64,000 bases of DNA from an uncultured Clostridia bacterium (GTDB lineage: Bacteria; Bacillota; Clostridia; TANB77; CAG-508), in contig CASKJV010000007.1 of assembly GCA_949388605.1 (NCBI GenBank), positions 16,689 to 80,688 of the forward strand, in the 5' to 3' direction. Within the stretch, counting starts at the first letter, position 1, and the number at the start of each line of letters is the position of its first letter. Positions 9,692 to 22,265 of this stretch are shown here, piece after piece. Made by a program: the position numbers and the translations under genes. Below the pieces are notes generated by a model that was given only the letters and a program-made list of their open reading frames with translations, ran no database searches and was not told the origin of the DNA.

Positions 9692-10591
9692 ATGAAAAAA
9701 GCATGTACTTTAATTGCCACCATACCATCACTTAATAATATAGAAAAAGTAGAAAGAGTTTTTGCAAATACTAATATTTCTGAAGTACGATTTAATACTG
9801 GTGCACAAACACCATATTCAATTTCAGAAACACTCGATATTTTAAAAAAGCTATCTATAAAATATAAAAAAAAGCTTTGGATTGATTTAAAAGGACGGCA
9901 GTTAAGAGTTATTAAATGGGCTGATCCATTATTCTCTTGTATTGAATTAAATCACAACATACAACTTTTATATCCAGCACAAATTTACTTCAGAAATAGT
10001 GATAGAGTGAATATTACACATGTAAAAGACGGAAATAAAATTTTCGTAGATCCATTGCCCAAATATCCTTTAGGAGCAGGCCAATCTGTCAATATTATTG
10101 CTAAAGAAATCAAAATTGATGGATATTTAACAAAAACTGATAAACAGTATTTACTTGTATGTCGTAAAAAAAAGCTGAATAATATAATGGCATCTTTTGT
10201 AGAGAACTTTAACGATTTATCACAAATACTTCGTTTTTTACCAACTGCTAAAATAATATGTAAAGTTGAGTCTTCTAAAGGGTTAGAGTTTATTTCTCAA
10301 TACAACATATCTGGATTAATGGCTGCAAGAGATGATTTATTTATTCAAACTGGACAAAATTATAGCCTGTTAGATCACTTAAAATTCATTATTTCTCGGG
10401 ATCCAGAAGCCATTTGTGCTTCACGGATATTTTTATCATTGGAAAAAAAGGATACTGTTGATTTTGCAGATTTTGCAGATTTGGAACTGATGTACAATAT
10501 GGGTTATAGAAAATTTATGTTGTGTGACAATGTTTGCAATTACTGCTTTGAAAATGCTATATTGGCTTGGGAGAATTTCATCAATGGATAA
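9692..10591 (+). CDS. Pyruvate-kinase-like TIM-barrel protein (A plus B domains only, no C-terminal regulatory domain)
   Basis: VRFNTG (PK R..N), IDLKGRQLR (DTKGPEIR), CKVESSKG (KIEN), MAARDDLF (ARGDLG), ASRIFLSL (ATQMLESM), MLCDNV (MLSGET). Confidence 0.65.
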   Translation: MKKACTLIATIPSLNNIEKVERVFANTNISEVRFNTGAQTPYSISETLDILKKLSIKYKKKLWIDLKGRQLRVIKWADPLFSCIELNHNIQLLYPAQIYFRNSDRVNITHVKDGNKIFVDPLPKYPLGAGQSVNIIAKEIKIDGYLTKTDKQYLLVCRKKKLNNIMASFVENFNDLSQILRFLPTAKIICKVESSKGLEFISQYNISGLMAARDDLFIQTGQNYSLLDHLKFIISRDPEAICASRIFLSLEKKDTVDFADFADLELMYNMGYRKFMLCDNVCNYCFENAILAWENFING

Positions 10592-12047
10592 TTTTATTTT
10601 ATGTGGTATGCAATTTGGTGATGAAGGAAAAGGAACTTTTGTTGATTATTTAATATATAATCAAAATATTGATTGTATTGTGAAATATAATGGTGGTTCT
10701 CAGGCCTCTCATACAGTTATTACTCCATCTAGAATTGTTCACAAATTTAGTCAATTAGGCTCTGGAATGTTTTCAGAAAAATGCCATACTTACTTAACAG
10801 ATAATATGGTAATAAATATCGAAAACCTTTTAGTTGAACTTGATGTATTTTCAAGCAAAACTAAAATTCCAATTCCAGAACTTATAAATAGAATTCATAT
10901 ACATGAAAACTGTTTTATTGTAACTCCATATCACAAACTGATAAATAAACTTCGTGAGCTTTCTAAAGGTGATAATCGCCGTGGTACTGTAGGAACTGGA
11001 GTAAGTGAAGTTCAATATTTACTAAATGAACAAAAAAAGTTTCCATGTGAACAACCTTTAGGATTAATGATAAAAGATATTTATAATCATTATAACAATA
11101 ATTCTATTATAGAAAGATTACAAGCTCTTCAAGAATATGTACTTTCTTTTTATTTACAAAATCAGGAAATTATTTCTAAAAATATTCCTGATGAATTAAA
11201 AGAAAATTTATCTAAAGAGATTTCTTTTTTACTGCATCCAAAAGCGTTTTTTACTATTGCTTCACATTATATAACAGAGTTCAAATATGCACGAAAGGAG
11301 TTTAATTTACAAAAATGCCTATATAGCAACTATGATTCAGCTATACGCACTTATCATAATGCTATATACGAAGGATCTCAAGGTCTTCTTATTGATAATG
11401 TTTATGGAATAAAGCCTAATACAACATTTCTTGACACTACAAATAGCTTTGCTCTTAGCCTTTCTCATGCGAATGATGTTACGCATAAAATAGGAATTAC
11501 AAAAGCATTTATGTCTAGACATGGATTAGGTATCTTTCCTACTGAATCATCAACCGTAAGCAATCAGATTTCAGACGAAAATCAAAATTTTTCTTTTTGG
11601 AACGGAAAAATTCGTTTTGGATGGTTTGACAGTATATTAGTAAGATATGCTCAAAGCATTAATAAAGTAAATGAATTATATTTATCTGCACTTGATAAAT
11701 TGGATGATTTCGACACAATCAAAGTTTGTAATGAATACATCTATTCTGGCACTATTGATAGTGAATTTAAAAAAATATTTAGTTACTATCTATCAGAAAA
11801 TGGACAAGTAATTATTACAGATATAAAGGAAAATCATAAGGATTTAAATAAATATTTAAGTAATTGTATTCCAAAATACATTTGTGTAAATGGCTGGAAA
11901 TCAAATATTACCCAAATATCTAATAAATCTTATCTTCCAACTAAATGTTTAGAATATATTAAACTTTTAGAAAAGCTTGTATGTATTCCTATAACAATTG
12001 TATCTGTAGGTCCTACTAGAGAGAATAAAATTAAGTTAACAGTTTAA
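10584..12047 (+). CDS. Divergent adenylosuccinate synthetase (PurA/PurZ)-family ligase
   Basis: QFGDEGKGTFVD P-loop, NGGSQASHTV (catalytic His), GTVGTGVSE, YEGSQGLLID, GIFPTE, VSVGPTRE. The ATG at 10584 overlaps the upstream stop (ATGGATAA). Confidence 0.8.
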   Translation: MDNFILCGMQFGDEGKGTFVDYLIYNQNIDCIVKYNGGSQASHTVITPSRIVHKFSQLGSGMFSEKCHTYLTDNMVINIENLLVELDVFSSKTKIPIPELINRIHIHENCFIVTPYHKLINKLRELSKGDNRRGTVGTGVSEVQYLLNEQKKFPCEQPLGLMIKDIYNHYNNNSIIERLQALQEYVLSFYLQNQEIISKNIPDELKENLSKEISFLLHPKAFFTIASHYITEFKYARKEFNLQKCLYSNYDSAIRTYHNAIYEGSQGLLIDNVYGIKPNTTFLDTTNSFALSLSHANDVTHKIGITKAFMSRHGLGIFPTESSTVSNQISDENQNFSFWNGKIRFGWFDSILVRYAQSINKVNELYLSALDKLDDFDTIKVCNEYIYSGTIDSEFKKIFSYYLSENGQVIITDIKENHKDLNKYLSNCIPKYICVNGWKSNITQISNKSYLPTKCLEYIKLLEKLVCIPITIVSVGPTRENKIKLTV

Positions 12048-12071: not shown

Positions 12072-12668
12072 ATGGATATTTACAGAGAAATTAGCAGATA
12101 TGTTCACTTTAACGGTACAGCAAACATCTTAATCTCAGGTACTACCTGCTCAGGAAAAACAACATTAGCTAATAGAGTTCGGGATTGCTTAGCTGATCAT
12201 ATTTCAGTAACAGTTGTTTCACAGGATGACTATTTCAGGAATCTTAGAGATATTCCTTATACATCTAACGGTCTTCTAATGGATTCACCCGAAGCATTTT
12301 GCCAAGAAGAATTTAAAGAAGATGTAAAAAAACTTCTTGCAAATTCAGTTGTAAAAATGCCAAACTATAACATTCCTACAAATACAAGAATCGATAAGAA
12401 AAAAGTTGTCCAAAAAAGTAAAGTAAATATTTTTGAAGGGTTACATGTAATTGATTTTTTATCTGGTTTTATGCCTGATTATATTTCCATATATCTTGAT
12501 ACAGATATGGAAACTTGCTTGAGCAGAAGAATTCAGAGAGACACATCGAATCTTCATGTTACAGAAGATGTAGTATATAAATATTGGAATAACTGTATAA
12601 AACCTGTATCTGAGAACTGCATTTTGCCACAAAAAGATTATGCAGATTATGTTCTGTGGAGGTGGTAA
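12072..12668 (+). CDS. Uridine kinase/phosphoribulokinase-family P-loop nucleoside kinase-like protein
   Basis: ISGTTCSGKTTLA Walker A, VVSQDDYF, DSPEAF, IFEGLH, YLDTDMETCLSRRIQRD; SD AAGGAGG. Confidence 0.7.
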   Translation: MDIYREISRYVHFNGTANILISGTTCSGKTTLANRVRDCLADHISVTVVSQDDYFRNLRDIPYTSNGLLMDSPEAFCQEEFKEDVKKLLANSVVKMPNYNIPTNTRIDKKKVVQKSKVNIFEGLHVIDFLSGFMPDYISIYLDTDMETCLSRRIQRDTSNLHVTEDVVYKYWNNCIKPVSENCILPQKDYADYVLWRW

Positions 12669-12674
12669 ATTTTT

Positions 12675-13718
12675 ATGGACATTAAAGTAGTTTATGAAAA
12701 ATTATTACAAGCCAAACGACCTATTGATTTTTTTGGTGAAGTTTCAAGTGATACAGATTTAAAAAGAATTTATCGAACATATGCAAAAAAAATTCATCCT
12801 GATACTGCACCACATAATGATAAATATATTGCAAGTCAAGCAATAATTCTCCTAAATGATTTATATAATTTAGGAGCCAAAGAACTTAAAGATGGCATTT
12901 ATTCTTTCATTGATCCTATTAAACTTTATAAACACATGTCACCCCTATTTGAAGTTAAAATAAAAGGTGAATTATATGAGTTTTATGAAAATGTTTTTGA
13001 AGGAGAAGTTGCAAATATTTTTAAAGGAATCTCAAATAACAATATTTTTTATTTGAAAGTTCCGATTGATTCTGATGATAATGAATTAATAGATACTGAA
13101 TATCGTGTTCTTTCAACTTATAGACATCAATCTATTCCTTATGTTGAGCAAAAAATCAAAATCAATGGTTCTAATTCTATTCTTATGAGAGAAGTACCAG
13201 GCATAACAATGCCTGAACTTCTTAAACAATATAAAAATAGGATTCCTGCTGAACATGTTATGTGGATGTTGGAAAGACTCTTAAGTGTAGTTGGATACAT
13301 GCATTCCAATTGTGTAGTACATGGAAACATTAAACCTGAAAATATTATCATTAATAAAGAGATTCATAATGTTTCTTTAATTGGATTTTCATTCTGTATC
13401 GAAAAGGCAAATACACCAGATGCACACTACAAAATTGTAAATGATTGTTATACAGCCCCAGAGGTGAATAAAGATTCCACAGTTTTACCCTCTTCAGATA
13501 TTTATTCAATCGGGAAAATTGCTATTGAACTTTTAGGAGGTAATATTTACAACAATGGTATGCCTGTATCTGTAGATGCTAAAGTTAGAGATTTTATCAG
13601 AAAAATGGTAACTACTGACCTATCTGTTAGACCAAATGATGCATGGAATCTTTGGAGTGAGCTCGTTGAGCTCAGAAATGAAGTTTTTGGGACTAAGAGA
13701 TTCAAAAAGTTAGATTAA
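12675..13718 (+). CDS. J-domain (HPD) fused to a Hanks-type protein kinase fold that lacks the catalytic aspartates (predicted pseudokinase)
   Basis: YRTYAKKIHPDTAP (HPD at 12795-12803). Kinase subdomains FEGEVANIFKG, FYLKV, HGNIKPEN (13320-13343), IGFSF in place of DFG, YTAPE, DIYSIG. Confidence 0.75.
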   Translation: MDIKVVYEKLLQAKRPIDFFGEVSSDTDLKRIYRTYAKKIHPDTAPHNDKYIASQAIILLNDLYNLGAKELKDGIYSFIDPIKLYKHMSPLFEVKIKGELYEFYENVFEGEVANIFKGISNNNIFYLKVPIDSDDNELIDTEYRVLSTYRHQSIPYVEQKIKINGSNSILMREVPGITMPELLKQYKNRIPAEHVMWMLERLLSVVGYMHSNCVVHGNIKPENIIINKEIHNVSLIGFSFCIEKANTPDAHYKIVNDCYTAPEVNKDSTVLPSSDIYSIGKIAIELLGGNIYNNGMPVSVDAKVRDFIRKMVTTDLSVRPNDAWNLWSELVELRNEVFGTKRFKKLD

Positions 13719-13731
13719 GGAGGAATATACC

Positions 13732-14694
13732 ATGGGTGGTTATAGTTATGACAGAGATGTTTATAGTTCCAGTTCCAGCTCCAGTTGGAGCAGTTCAAGT
13801 AATTTTGGAGCAAGTTCCTACTCAACCAGCAAACTTAGTAGTACAACTTTAGATTATAGTATGGAACCAAATGGGAAAATAATCAAAAGTACCACTAAGT
13901 CCCCTATTATTATTGTACTTGATGTGACAGGTTCTAACATTAATTTTGCTCGGGTAGTTTATGATAAATTACCTATGTTCTATGGACAAATAGAGCAAAA
14001 AGGTTATTTGAAAGATTTTGATATTGCTATTTGTGCAGTCGGTGATGCTTATACTGATAGTTACCCTTTACAAATTGGAAATTTTGCAAAAGGAATCGAA
14101 TTGGATTCCTGGCTGGAAAAGATCGTTCTTGAAGGAGGTGGCGGTGGACAAGGTAAAGAATCTTACGAACTTGCTGCTTACTATTTATTAAAAAATACAC
14201 AATTTGTCCCAGGTAGTGAACCTATTATTTTCTTTATTGGTGACGAAAATCCTTATCCAACTGTAAATACATCTCAGACAGAGAACTTCGGTATTGGCAG
14301 TTGTAAAGATGATATTGAACCATTTTCTTTACTTCGTAAGAAAGTAAATGATAATGTTTTTATGCTTTTAAATAAGTATTGTGGCCATAAATTTGAACCC
14401 GATATAACATCTTGTTGGACAAGCCTTTTAGCTCCTGAACATGTAATTAAAATACAGGAGGAAAAATCAATTGTTGATTTAATGCTTGGTATTATCTCAA
14501 TGATATCTTCGACAAGATCATTAGAAACATATCAAATTGATATGAAAAATAGAGGGCAAACTCAAAAACGTATTGAGAATGTTTCAGCTTCTTTACAAGG
14601 ATTATCCACGGCTTTAGTGCCTGTTAAAATTAGTGGAGATATTACCACTACAACAAGTAAGGCAAAAGCCTCTCAAAGAGGAAAAAGACTTTAA
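13732..14694 (+). CDS. von Willebrand factor A (TerY-like) domain protein with an N-terminal poly-Ser low-complexity region
   Basis: MIDAS-like LDVTGS, GGGGGQGKES, FFIGDENP; N-terminus YSSSSSSSWSSSSNFGASSYSTSKLSS; SD AAGGAGG. Confidence 0.7.
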   Translation: MGGYSYDRDVYSSSSSSSWSSSSNFGASSYSTSKLSSTTLDYSMEPNGKIIKSTTKSPIIIVLDVTGSNINFARVVYDKLPMFYGQIEQKGYLKDFDIAICAVGDAYTDSYPLQIGNFAKGIELDSWLEKIVLEGGGGGQGKESYELAAYYLLKNTQFVPGSEPIIFFIGDENPYPTVNTSQTENFGIGSCKDDIEPFSLLRKKVNDNVFMLLNKYCGHKFEPDITSCWTSLLAPEHVIKIQEEKSIVDLMLGIISMISSTRSLETYQIDMKNRGQTQKRIENVSASLQGLSTALVPVKISGDITTTTSKAKASQRGKRL

Positions 14695-14721: not shown

Positions 14722-14755
14722 AAGGACACGCTAAAATAGCGTGTCCTTGTATTTT
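14722..14755. terminator. Bidirectional intrinsic terminator between the operon and the tagO-like gene
   Basis: AAGGACACGCT-AAAAT-AGCGTGTCCTT, a perfect 11-bp stem followed by a T-rich tract. Confidence 0.8.
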
Positions 14756-20090: not shown

Positions 20091-22265
20091 TTAATCCTCT
20101 TTTTCACTACTTATTACTATTTCTTCATGAGTTTCTTCTTTAGCATTTATTTTAACACTATCAATAATATTTATAAATTTAATTTCATCCCTTGAAATTT
20201 CACTTCCAAATTTATTGTAACTATTAGATAATGCGTCTAACTTTTCAAGTCGTTTAAATGTATTTTTTACATCTCCATTTACCATATTGTAAATCTTAAT
20301 AATGCCTTCATTATTAAATGTTTTTATACCATCTACTAATTCATTACTTCCCGTTGACAATTTATCTGTTCCTAATACTAAAGTATTTGTTCCATCTTTT
20401 AATGCATTTGAACCATCTGATAGTTTAGATACTCCATCATTTAATGTAACTATACCATTTGCCAAATCTCCAGCTCCTTTTGATATTGTAGTTGCTGCAT
20501 CTAATAATTGTCCATTGGCTGTTAATAATTTATTTGTTGAAGGTGCCAATTCTTCTAATCCATTTTTTACTTGAGAAGATCCATCATTTAATTGTTTTGT
20601 TCCTTTTTTTAATTGCATACTTCCGCCATATACTTTATCTGCACCTTTTACTAAATTATCTATTCCTGTTACCAAATTATTTGCTCCTGTAGTTAATCCA
20701 TCTGTTCCTGCTACTAATTCATCAGCACCTTTAATTAACTCATTTGTTCCATTTACTAATAATGTTGCTCCATTAGATAATTTTCCCATTCCACTTGAAA
20801 CTGTTCCTTCTAAATTATTTAGAGCATTTATAATTGGGCTTACATCTACTGAAGACCTTTCTGTATTACCTAAGTTTTCTTCTAAAATTTCTATATTGCT
20901 GTTATTAGTTTGTACTAATCCAATTAATGTATTTTTTAACTCTCCATCTTCCATTGTAGATATTTGTACTTCTAAAGCTGCATTAGTATTTTTTAAACTA
21001 TTTATAGTTGATTGATTATTTTGTAATGGTGAATTTACTGAACTACTATTTCCAATTGAATTTGTAAGTACTTTTATATTTCCTATGTCTTGACTTACTC
21101 CTGCTTGTAAATCATTTATTCCTTTTTCTAAATCATTAGCACCTTTTTGGCCATTTTCAAGTCCTGATTTAAGTTTTTTTGCTCCTGCAGATAAATTTGT
21201 TGTTCCTTGAGCAAGTTGTTCTGCTCCCATTTTTACACTATTTGCTCCATCACTTACATCTTTAGCTCCATTTGATAATGCTGTACTACCTTGATCTAAT
21301 TCTTGAATTCCACTATTCATAGTATCATACTTAGAATTTAATAACTTTATACCATTAGATACTTGATTCATAGCTGAATTAAACTCTTTTGATTTAGCTA
21401 CATATTGTGAAGTTCCATTTTTTAAAGTATTTGCACCATTATTTAATTCTGTACTTCCACTTTTTAAAGTGTTTATGCCGTTATTTAATTCATTTGTCCC
21501 ATTATTTAAACTATTCGCTCCATCACTTAAAGTAATTATTCCATCATTTAATTTAATAGCTCCTTCTTCAATTTGAAAACTTGCAGACTTTAAATCTTCT
21601 ACTTGATTATAAATTTCATCTAATTTATCTGAAATTTTATCAAAGCTACCTTCTTCTAATACTTTAGGTGTATAAAAACTCATAATATTTCCAATTTCAA
21701 AATTTGTACTTTCCATAGAAATTTCAATTTTACTTGGAATTTCTATATTTTCTTTCGAAATATTTAAACTTTCTTGCATTCCTGGAAGTGCAACACCTAT
21801 AACTATAGTTTTACTTCCATCATTAATTACTTTTCCATTAGAAATTTCAACATTTCTATTATTATCATTATTAATAATAGCACCTGCTACTACAAAAAAT
21901 GGTGTATATAAAGTTTCGTTATTCCCATTTATTATTACTTCATTTGCAGATTTATTCTCATATTCTAAAATAATTTTTACTTTTCCACTTTTACCTGCTA
22001 AACTCCCTGCTGAGATTTCTTCTCCATCCAACTCATATGTTACTTTACAATCAACAGGTAATTCTTTATTTTCTTCATTTTGAATAGTATCTGTTCCCTC
22101 TTCATTCTCTGTTATTTCACTAATTATTGTTTTATAAGCATTCCCTGAATTATCTAATTTGGAATAAACACTTTCTTCATTAGTAAAAGCAAAAATTGGC
22201 ATTGTATAAGTTAATAAAGAACATAACATTATACCTGAAACACATTTTTTTATAACTTTACTCAT
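20091..22265 (-). CDS. YhgE/Pip-domain protein (N-terminal anchor plus long NxLxxG-type repeat region)
   Basis: Reiterated LNNG.N.L..G..EL motifs, a signal/anchor sequence, and linkage to an MMPL gene. Confidence 0.7.
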   Translation of the reverse strand: MSKVIKKCVSGIMLCSLLTYTMPIFAFTNEESVYSKLDNSGNAYKTIISEITENEEGTDTIQNEENKELPVDCKVTYELDGEEISAGSLAGKSGKVKIILEYENKSANEVIINGNNETLYTPFFVVAGAIINNDNNRNVEISNGKVINDGSKTIVIGVALPGMQESLNISKENIEIPSKIEISMESTNFEIGNIMSFYTPKVLEEGSFDKISDKLDEIYNQVEDLKSASFQIEEGAIKLNDGIITLSDGANSLNNGTNELNNGINTLKSGSTELNNGANTLKNGTSQYVAKSKEFNSAMNQVSNGIKLLNSKYDTMNSGIQELDQGSTALSNGAKDVSDGANSVKMGAEQLAQGTTNLSAGAKKLKSGLENGQKGANDLEKGINDLQAGVSQDIGNIKVLTNSIGNSSSVNSPLQNNQSTINSLKNTNAALEVQISTMEDGELKNTLIGLVQTNNSNIEILEENLGNTERSSVDVSPIINALNNLEGTVSSGMGKLSNGATLLVNGTNELIKGADELVAGTDGLTTGANNLVTGIDNLVKGADKVYGGSMQLKKGTKQLNDGSSQVKNGLEELAPSTNKLLTANGQLLDAATTISKGAGDLANGIVTLNDGVSKLSDGSNALKDGTNTLVLGTDKLSTGSNELVDGIKTFNNEGIIKIYNMVNGDVKNTFKRLEKLDALSNSYNKFGSEISRDEIKFINIIDSVKINAKEETHEEIVISSEKED

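Follow-up and report, generated by a model that had tools for sequence, protein, structure and literature searches.

Whether a gene of the adenylosuccinate synthetase (AdSS) family still encodes a PurA, or an enzyme whose active site has been re-specified, is the question raised by a 64,000-nucleotide stretch of DNA from an uncultured Clostridia bacterium (contig CASKJV010000007.1; the whole stretch is "the window" hereafter). The gene in question, at 10584-12047 on the + strand, lies second in a compact operon of five genes, whose other members include one for a von Willebrand factor A (vWA) protein and one for a kinase-like protein. On the evidence of sequence comparison, its product is not an ordinary PurA but belongs to a sister clade of AdSS that is very large and uncharacterised, and the best reading of its differences from PurA appears to be neofunctionalisation at the amine site.

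The window protein is a non-canonical member of the AdSS family

The open reading frame (ORF) at 10584-12047 (+ strand) translates into 487 amino acids (aa), of which residues 6-482 are covered by a match to the AdSS family PF00709 (251.8 bits versus a gathering score of 27; E = 1.4e-74). The protein fails the NCBIfam purA equivalogs, scoring about half of the cut-off in each case (NF002223, 218.9 versus 402; TIGR00184, 208.3 versus 395.55), and its identity is 24.6% to E. coli PurA and 24-28% to canonical PurAs overall. A protein database contains 680 homologues at E <= 1e-10, and the best 120 of the 680 show 45-68% identity, with a length of about 486 aa. We take ATG 10584 to be the correct start, because the N-termini of homologues agree with it, having the form MDxY(I/V)LCGMQFGDEGKG, and because it overlaps the stop of the upstream gene by 8 nucleotides. 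No further AdSS homologue is present within the window.

A first-pass annotation of this ORF, made from the sequence alone, had named a set of motifs, all of which are present and in place in the translation. We mapped the ligand-contact residues of E. coli PurA onto 56 diverse members of the clade, taken from both of the subclades described below. For the window protein, the features are as follows:

10584-12047, + strand: the AdSS-family enzyme, non-canonical (487 aa)
10617-10634, + strand: P-loop GDEGKG, residues 12-17 (Gly12-Gly17), retained; catalytic Asp13 and Lys16 in 56/56 members
10689-10718, + strand: NGGSQASHTV; E. coli His41 kept as catalytic His43, with Gln40 in place of Asn38 and Ser42 in place of Gly40
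10977-11009, + strand: remodelled loop for the 5'-phosphate of inosine monophosphate (IMP), RRGTVGTGVSE; Thr129 replaced by Val136 and Arg131 by Thr138, with no downstream equivalent of Arg143
10983-11009, + strand: GTVGTGVSE, the core of this loop
11367-11396, + strand: YEGSQGLLID
11514-11531, + strand: SRHGLG; His313 in place of E. coli Val273, in 56/56 members across both subclades
11529-11546, + strand: GIFPTE
11589-11630, + strand: rewritten aspartate loop, FSFWNGKIRFGWFD; Thr300 replaced by Trp339, Thr301 by Asn340 and Arg305 by Ile343, Arg303 deleted, Arg306 kept as Arg344
11682-11705, + strand: LSALDKLD; guanine-specificity residue Asp371 (E. coli Asp333) retained, Lys331 replaced by Ala369
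12000-12020, + strand: VSVGPTR; guanine-binding Ser474-x-Gly476-Pro477 retained

The residues for guanosine triphosphate (GTP) binding and phosphoryl transfer are kept throughout the clade. In particular, Gly12, Asp13, Lys16, and Gly17 (numbered as in E. coli), together with His43, Gln266 (E. coli Gln224), and Thr281 (E. coli Thr239), are kept in all or nearly all of the 56 members; His43, Asp371, and Ser474 (E. coli Ser414) are invariant; and Gly476 and Pro477 (E. coli Gly416 and Pro417) are mostly kept. The claim of the first-pass annotation that the GTP/phosphoryl-transfer core is retained is thus borne out well beyond the single protein.

The aspartate loop, which the same annotation had described as rewritten, is replaced as a whole. 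Thr300 has become Trp, Thr301 Asn or Gln, and Arg305 Ile or Phe, and Arg303 is deleted, in each case in 56/56 members. The canonical form against which the loop had been compared, GxTTGRxRRxGWxD, is correct: the loop reads GATTGRRRRTGWLD in E. coli PurA and GTTTGRPRRVGWFD in the PurA of Staphylococcus and Enterococcus. In canonical enzymes, Arg303 contacts both the aspartate substrate and the 2'-OH of IMP (PMC8342488), and in the H. pylori enzyme the residues equivalent to Arg303 and Arg305, namely Arg294 and Arg296, have a sulfate on them (PMC11571797). A search for arginines in register with Arg303 and Arg305, which would have spoken against a rewritten site, found none in any member.

The IMP 5'-phosphate site is altered as well. 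The H. pylori enzyme binds the IMP phosphate through Asn37, Thr121, Thr230, and Arg135 of the neighbouring subunit (PMC11571797). Three of the four corresponding contacts are changed in the clade: Asn38 is Gln in all 56 members, Thr129 is Val or Cys in all 56, and the trans-subunit arginine, Arg143, has no equivalent in the 56 aligned members; the fourth is Thr281. Arg131 is replaced by Thr, or by Met, Lys, or Leu in the second subclade, and the loop GTVGTGVSE is where the first-pass annotation had placed it. Lys331 is likewise not kept, being Ser or Asn across members and Ala in the window protein. Residues have also been gained. Specifically, a new Arg-Arg pair (132-133) stands just before the IMP-phosphate loop, and the histidine that replaces Val273 in 56/56 members is positioned beside the ribose/nucleophile site; the RHG segment to which it belongs recurs in the metagenome loci, in 77 of the 78 that have an ORF spanning it. 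This residue table leads us to infer that the GTP site and the phosphoryl-transfer machinery are strongly constrained, and that the pocket for aspartate, along with most of that for the 5'-phosphate, was first remodelled and afterwards became fixed in its new form.

The predicted structure retains the AdSS fold and has ordered insertions

An AlphaFold model of the protein, built with the 56-sequence alignment, has a mean predicted local distance difference test score (pLDDT) of 95.3 and a predicted template-modelling score (pTM) of 0.92. The best Foldseek matches in the PDB are canonical AdSS structures (E ~1e-32; template-modelling score 0.80-0.87 on the target), and the PurZ/DgsS entries are much weaker (E ~1e-13). 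With 487 aa against 432, the protein exceeds E. coli PurA by 55 residues, close to the roughly 60 aa estimated earlier. These approximately 55 extra residues follow the IMP loop, in the helical subdomain around 173-250, where they form ordered helices at about 173-234, and make up an insertion at about 386-425.

The protein belongs to a large clade apart from canonical PurA

Among 1.84 billion cluster representatives, 1,383 were matched at E <= 1e-30 in an exhaustive phmmer search, and the non-canonical loop is present in all of the best 150 of these. The loop consensus W-[N/Q]-G-x-[I/F]-R-x-G-W replaces TTGRxRR in those 150 representatives and in 80/80 metagenome loci; the latter were found with patterns derived from the clade, and hence they test neighbourhoods and not the ratio of canonical to non-canonical enzymes. 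Two subclades can be distinguished by their loops: the subclade of the window protein, with [ST][FY]WNGxIRFGWFD, and a W-Q-G subclade, with NxxNxWQGxFRxGW[FL]D and GGPQAAH, which is more distant (30-37% identity). A profile of the W-Q-G subclade matches 5,322 proteins at E <= 1e-20, some canonical PurAs possibly among them; named matches come from Parcubacteria and other Patescibacteria, Acidobacteria, Ktedonobacterales, and the planctomycete Ca. Uabimicrobium amorphum. At higher rank, named matches fall in Clostridia, Patescibacteria, Planctomycetota, Chloroflexota, and Acidobacteriota. A scan of GTDB genomes with the single protein as query found 11 close relatives.

In a neighbour-joining tree, the two subclades group together, apart from canonical PurA, which answers the call of the first-pass annotation for a phylogeny. 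Every source that names members of the clade names them adenylosuccinate synthetase; these database "PurA" names are probably wrong, judging from the lost aspartate-binding residues and the near-constant vWA neighbour. Full-text literature searches turned up no account of the clade or of the vWA/kinase/AdSS module in which its genes occur, and the comparative-genomics papers of the Aravind group that were consulted make no mention of adenylosuccinate.

The gene lies in a five-gene operon with vWA and kinase-like partners

The partner genes, like the size of the clade and the phage copies described below, lay outside the view of the first-pass annotation. The five genes of the operon encode, in order, a pyruvate kinase (PK)-barrel-like protein, the AdSS-like protein, a uridine kinase (Udk)-like protein, a kinase-like protein with a J-like N-terminus, and the vWA protein. 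Apart from the AdSS-like gene, the features of the operon are as follows:

9478-9506, + strand: candidate sigma-70-type promoter, TTGAAT-17-TAGAAT with TG (consensus scan; 320-bp leader; weak)
9680-9686, + strand: ribosome-binding site AAGGAGG
9692-10591, + strand: PK-barrel-like phosphotransferase, 299 aa (PF00224, 42.5 bits; pyruvate kinase TIM-barrel domain only)
12072-12668, + strand: uridine-kinase-like P-loop nucleoside kinase, 198 aa (PF00485, 70 bits; PRK family cut-off reached)
12675-13718, + strand: protein with a J-like N-terminus and a protein-kinase fold, 347 aa (Pkinase PF00069, 77.7 bits; DnaJ, 21.4 bits)
13732-14694, + strand: vWA protein with a metal-ion-dependent adhesion site (MIDAS), 320 aa (AlphaFold2 model and Foldseek; no Pfam hit)
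13732-13764, + strand: conserved vWA N-terminus MGGYSYDRDVY (Met1-Gly2 invariant in the family)
13918-13938, + strand: MIDAS motif LDVTGSN
14674-14691, + strand: basic C-terminus of the vWA protein, QRGKRL
14722-14748, + strand: terminator-like hairpin (12-bp stem, 6 GC pairs, T-rich tail), which ends the operon ahead of a convergent gene

The vWA protein is known as such through its predicted structure only, because direct sequence searches were empty: there is nothing in Pfam at E <= 5 nor in a phmmer search of the PDB at E <= 10. The AlphaFold2 model (pLDDT 83.4) matches vWF A and integrin I domains in Foldseek with probability 1.0 and E ~3e-6, and the DxTGS MIDAS motif is invariant across aligned homologues. 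The N-terminal tail is disordered and Ser-rich, and Gly2 is present in 40/40 homologues with an alignable N-terminus, phage copies included (25 MGG, 8 MGS, and a few others). After the Met-Gly start come an aromatic and an acidic residue, and most copies have a basic end of the form ...R[LI]. In the W-Q-G subclade, the vWA protein is about 490 aa long, the domain being interrupted by a beta-rich insert of about 170 aa with the motif LIWN..DLDLHV...VENIRW...Y.V.VQNY (loci L024, 1091-2566; L020, 6445-7887; L026, 5357-6865; and L027, 5519-6997).

The kinase-like protein has Asn at the catalytic Asp of HRD (HGNIKPEN, 13320-13343) and Gly at the Asp of DFG (IGFS, 13380-13391), as aligned with a PknB reference sequence and 12 homologues. 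Across 13 homologues, the HRD position is Asn, Ala, or Arg and never Asp, and the DFG Asp is also lost in the kinase-like proteins of the window's clade; the beta3 Lys and alphaC Glu are kept. These substitutions suggest that the protein is probably a pseudokinase or an atypical enzyme. Pfam, PADLOC, and phage annotations name the gene a Ser/Thr kinase despite the missing catalytic Asp. The J-like N-terminus carries HPD at 12792-12803, a motif found in 10 of the 13 homologues, with a DnaJ score that lies under the cut-off of 27.8 bits; weak or faint DnaJ matches occur also in L021, L022, and L027.

The PK-like protein, aligned to human PKLR, has the motifs VRFNTG (9785-9802), IDLKGRQLR (9881-9907), CKVESSKG (10259-10282), and AARDDL (10322-10339), which contain R-x-N, D-x-K-G-x-x-x-R, K-x-E, and A-R-x-D, sites that we take to be the catalytic ones of PK. 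It fails the pyruvate kinase equivalog TIGR01064 (49 versus 306 bits) and does not have the full multi-domain architecture. The Udk-like protein has a Walker A motif (GTTCSGKTT, 12138-12164) and SQDDYF (12219-12236; SQD[DS][FY] kept), and fails the uridine kinase equivalog NF004018 (110.6 versus 180 bits).

The operon is flanked by glycosyltransferase genes and housekeeping genes, in a low-GC (~25%) metagenome-assembled genome. Promoter-like sites, such as the candidate listed above, are not enriched over shuffled sequences. Rfam gave no match in the operon leader (9300-9760), even at E <= 1, and tRNAs only across the window, so that the operon has no link to a purine riboswitch; no purB was found near the AdSS-like gene within the window. 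Elsewhere in the window, an ORF of 416 aa at 3459-4709 (- strand), between Pth and Sua5, has no convincing Pfam family, and an ORF of 724 aa at 20091-22265 (- strand) has only sub-threshold, coiled-coil-type Pfam matches.

The vWA gene is the most constant neighbour

The five genes stand in the same order in all 12 of the related Clostridia loci that have complete flanks, and the flanking genes differ; the same cassette is present in L021 and L022. Across the related loci, the vWA protein is 57-77% identical where the AdSS-like protein is 43-68% identical. In the W-Q-G subclade, seven loci (L020, L023, L024, L025, L026, L027, and L034) contain AdSS-like, vWA, and kinase-like homologues, and only some have PK-like or Udk-like genes.

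For the metagenome loci, we counted neighbours in the 23 of the 80 that have at least 3 kb on both sides. A vWA gene is present in 22 of these 23, a kinase-like gene in 17, a PK-like gene in 10, and a Udk-like gene in 3. PK-like and Udk-like genes occur also in gut Clostridia cassettes and in one Parcubacteria locus.

Genes of the NAD/ADP-ribose type recur in the neighbourhoods, and a link to NAD-type nucleotides is conceivable. In L026 (1706-15039), the Parcubacteria cassette encloses a NadD-like nucleotidyltransferase gene, and after the cassette come NrtR-like, NadB, NadA, and NadE genes; L020 (1054-3730) has NrtR-like and phosphoribosyl pyrophosphate synthetase genes; a NUDIX gene is the first of the cassette in L023 (148-630); and a SIR2 gene is nearby in L027 (986-1798). 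The clade member in L015 lies near Pth and RNase G genes, as does the cassette of the window.

Three groups of phages carry the gene

A tblastn search of 50,697 phage records with the AdSS-like gene matched 201 Mycobacterium, 10 Rhizobium, and 6 Vibrio phages (about 217), besides bacterial contaminants and true PurA genes. The vWA protein of mycobacteriophage QBert, used as query, gave identical groups and numbers (201, 10, and 6).

In QBert (cluster C1; MK359345, L032), genes 253-255 form a triad: the product of gene 253, annotated "serine/threonine kinase", is J-like and has a kinase fold, with HPD present and the HRD Asp missing; that of gene 254, listed as a "hypothetical protein", is a vWA homologue (E = 6.9e-49) that starts (GTG)M-G-S-G; and gene 255, a "PurA-like adenylosuccinate synthetase", has the loop MWQGKFRQGHLD. 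The C1 phage protein is in the same clade as the window enzyme, with the loop HNHEGMWQGKFRQGHLD, the RHG segment, and the same partners; it differs in being only about 23% identical to the window protein and in having no PK-like or Udk-like genes beside it. The single published statement found on these genes is that every C1 phage has both the kinase pham and the PurA-like pham (PMC9476963). RefSeq (NC_054720.1) and PHROGs (phrog_1211) label the phage gene "2-aminooxy adenylosuccinate synthetase", of the PurZ type. In view of the W-Q-G loop and the vWA and kinase-like neighbours, this label, which stands on about 200 phage genomes, looks like a propagated annotation error.

Vibrio phage phiTY18 (191 kb; L115, 5863-8147) has a vWA gene whose product starts MGGATW, followed by an AdSS-like gene, and no kinase-like gene. 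Its AdSS-like protein, shorter at 386 aa, has a variant loop, NEFQGTMKFGKLD, and a more canonical GGANAGHT motif.

A change of amine substrate is the favoured reading

Neofunctionalisation at the amine site suggests itself as the best reading because the catalytic core is kept, the aspartate contacts are lost, the clade is separate, and the operon is conserved. Taken as a whole, we give a little better than an even chance to the reading that the enzyme, working with a vWA module, is a purine-nucleotide ligase that depends on GTP and takes some amine other than aspartate. Such an enzyme would form a 6-phosphoryl purine nucleotide with GTP, and the phosphate would then be displaced by an amine without carboxylates, and hence not by a dicarboxylic amino acid. 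The simplest candidate for this amine is ammonia or another small neutral amine, which would give adenosine monophosphate (AMP)-type products; the amino group of a peptide is a further one. The enzyme would serve as the catalytic arm of a vWA/pseudokinase module, and not in housekeeping purine synthesis; from their context, the Udk-like and PK-like proteins may feed it, the one converting nucleoside to nucleoside monophosphate and the other making GTP from guanosine diphosphate and phosphoenolpyruvate. The first-pass annotation had proposed an altered acceptor or amine donor: a change at the amine site is backed by sequence, family, and context, and the changed substrate itself stays a proposal.

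A narrower version of the same reading, which we hold to be improbable, is that the enzyme is a protein-directed ligase: once IMP or a related nucleotide has been 6-phosphorylated with GTP, the attacking amine would be the free alpha-amino group of the N-terminal Gly of the vWA partner, giving a covalent N6-(peptidyl)-adenylate mark. With Gly in second position, the initiator Met is expected to be removed, which would expose this glycine. The constancy of the vWA gene in 22 of 23 loci, and of Gly2, at the tip of a disordered tail, in 40/40 homologues, is consistent with such a role, and the loss of both carboxylate-binding arginines (the pocket now having Trp, Asn or Gln, and His) would be explained, since the amine of a peptide lacks a free alpha- or beta-carboxylate. 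Two stand-alone members, with no vWA or kinase-like neighbour (L015, 6986-8608; L033, 6001-7368), argue against it, and therefore the enzyme may act autonomously.

The stand-alone members weigh also against the broader proposal of an amine-specific ligase in a vWA module, and so do two further observations: Arg344, the equivalent of Arg306, and the new Arg132-Arg133 pair could in principle form a rebuilt carboxylate site, and members occur in Patescibacteria, which have small genomes and are expected to depend on nucleotide salvage, such that a plain salvage role is conceivable. All three would fit a genuine, lineage-specific PurA that has built its aspartate site from other residues and still makes adenylosuccinate for AMP synthesis or salvage, as would the retention of all catalytic and GTP residues and the agreement of every naming source. 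We nevertheless consider a genuine PurA unlikely, as scores about half of the NCBIfam purA cut-off, the replacement of Arg303, Arg305, Thr300, and Thr301 in 56/56 members, and a bulky, invariant Trp in the pocket speak against it; moreover, the near-constant neighbour is a vWA gene and not a purine gene, with neither purB nor a purine riboswitch nearby, and one member lies on a 9.5-Mb contig of Ca. Uabimicrobium amorphum, where a normal purA would be expected. An opposite view of the same residues, that the protein is a catalytically silent, GTP-binding regulatory subunit of a vWA/kinase-like complex, would account for the lost substrate contacts, for the absence of Arg143, which completes the PurA active site across the dimer, and for a partner kinase that looks catalytically dead. 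This pseudo-enzyme is very improbable, given that a very deep clade keeps the base Asp13, the acid His43, Lys16, Gln266, and the whole P-loop without change or almost so, and that new residues, His313 and Trp339, have become invariant in the active site; kept catalytic residues together with new invariant ones are the signature expected of a working, re-specified active site.

The strongest rival concerns the role of the module more than its chemistry. TerY-P (Gao et al., 2020) is reportedly a triad of the vWA protein TerY, a Ser/Thr kinase, and a PP2C phosphatase, and a candidate defence system. A conflict module of this type, anti-phage in bacteria and serving counter-defence or takeover in phages, would have a vWA sensor and a kinase-like adaptor that control the AdSS-like protein as effector, which would deplete IMP or GTP or make a toxic or signalling nucleotide, and would thus be compatible with the proposed chemistry. 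The pairing of vWA and kinase-fold proteins resembles TerY-P as reported, the cassette lies at different chromosomal places in related genomes, some neighbours are of defence type (AbiEii/AbiEi, an SLFN/AlbA_2 ATPase, a cyclase with an Apyc1-like metallo-beta-lactamase, and a ResIII helicase), and three unrelated phage groups carry the module. PADLOC, however, has no model that matches the AdSS-like, the PK-like, or the vWA protein, and its hits to the kinase are generic, and the operon is on that account not assigned to a known defence system; in addition, the five-gene operon contains no PP2C phosphatase gene, the kinase is without its catalytic Asp, the proteins are strongly conserved, and many neighbourhoods contain housekeeping genes. 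We regard the conflict module as a real but minority possibility, clearly ahead of a genuine PurA.

If the amine-specific ligase is what the clade encodes, metabolic reconstructions that count its members as purA would wrongly credit IMP-to-AMP conversion, and the AdSS scaffold would have been re-specified another time after PurZ, here at the amine site. The clade would point to new nucleotide chemistry, whether an N6-substituted adenylate, direct amination, or a protein-nucleotide conjugate; an N6-(peptidyl)-adenylate, if true, would be a nucleotide modification of a protein N-terminus without earlier description. The coupling to a Gly2-bearing vWA protein and a J-like probable pseudokinase defines a conserved module common to bacteria and phages, for which the Bxz1-type cluster C1 mycobacteriophages of M. 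smegmatis, which carry it, provide a tractable model.

Comparison with known systems

Canonical PurA (EC 6.3.4.4; structures from E. coli, B. anthracis, and H. pylori) shares with the window enzyme its fold, its Pfam family, and its GTP and catalytic residues. It differs in its loop, which is GxTTGRxRR as compared with [ST][FY]W[NQ]Gx[IF]R in the window clade, and the window gene differs in sitting with genes for a vWA and a kinase-like protein and not with purine genes.

PurZ and PurZ0 (succino-2-amino-deoxyadenylate synthase) are also neofunctionalised AdSS homologues, are phage-borne, and share the phosphoryl-transfer core. The first-pass annotation had likened the window enzyme to PurZ, and in this respect it does not hold, as the two are altered in opposite ways. 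PurZ has retained both aspartate as a substrate and the loop that contacts it (PMC8342488); it changes the nucleotide, which is dGMP, takes ATP or dATP as energy donor, and has no equivalent of Asp333 in our alignment, whereas the window enzyme keeps the GTP determinants, including Asp371. Membership of the PurZ family was rejected: NF038379 gives 35.1 bits versus 300, over the N-terminal 120 residues only, the structure ranking favours canonical AdSS, and a different site is altered. The window enzyme has neither datZ nor mazZ among its neighbours.

With TerY-P, as reported, the window operon has in common the genetic coupling of a vWA/MIDAS protein to a kinase-fold protein. It differs in having no PP2C phosphatase and in a kinase-like protein that has a J-like N-terminus and no catalytic Asp, and an AdSS-family enzyme is here the constant third, or only, partner.

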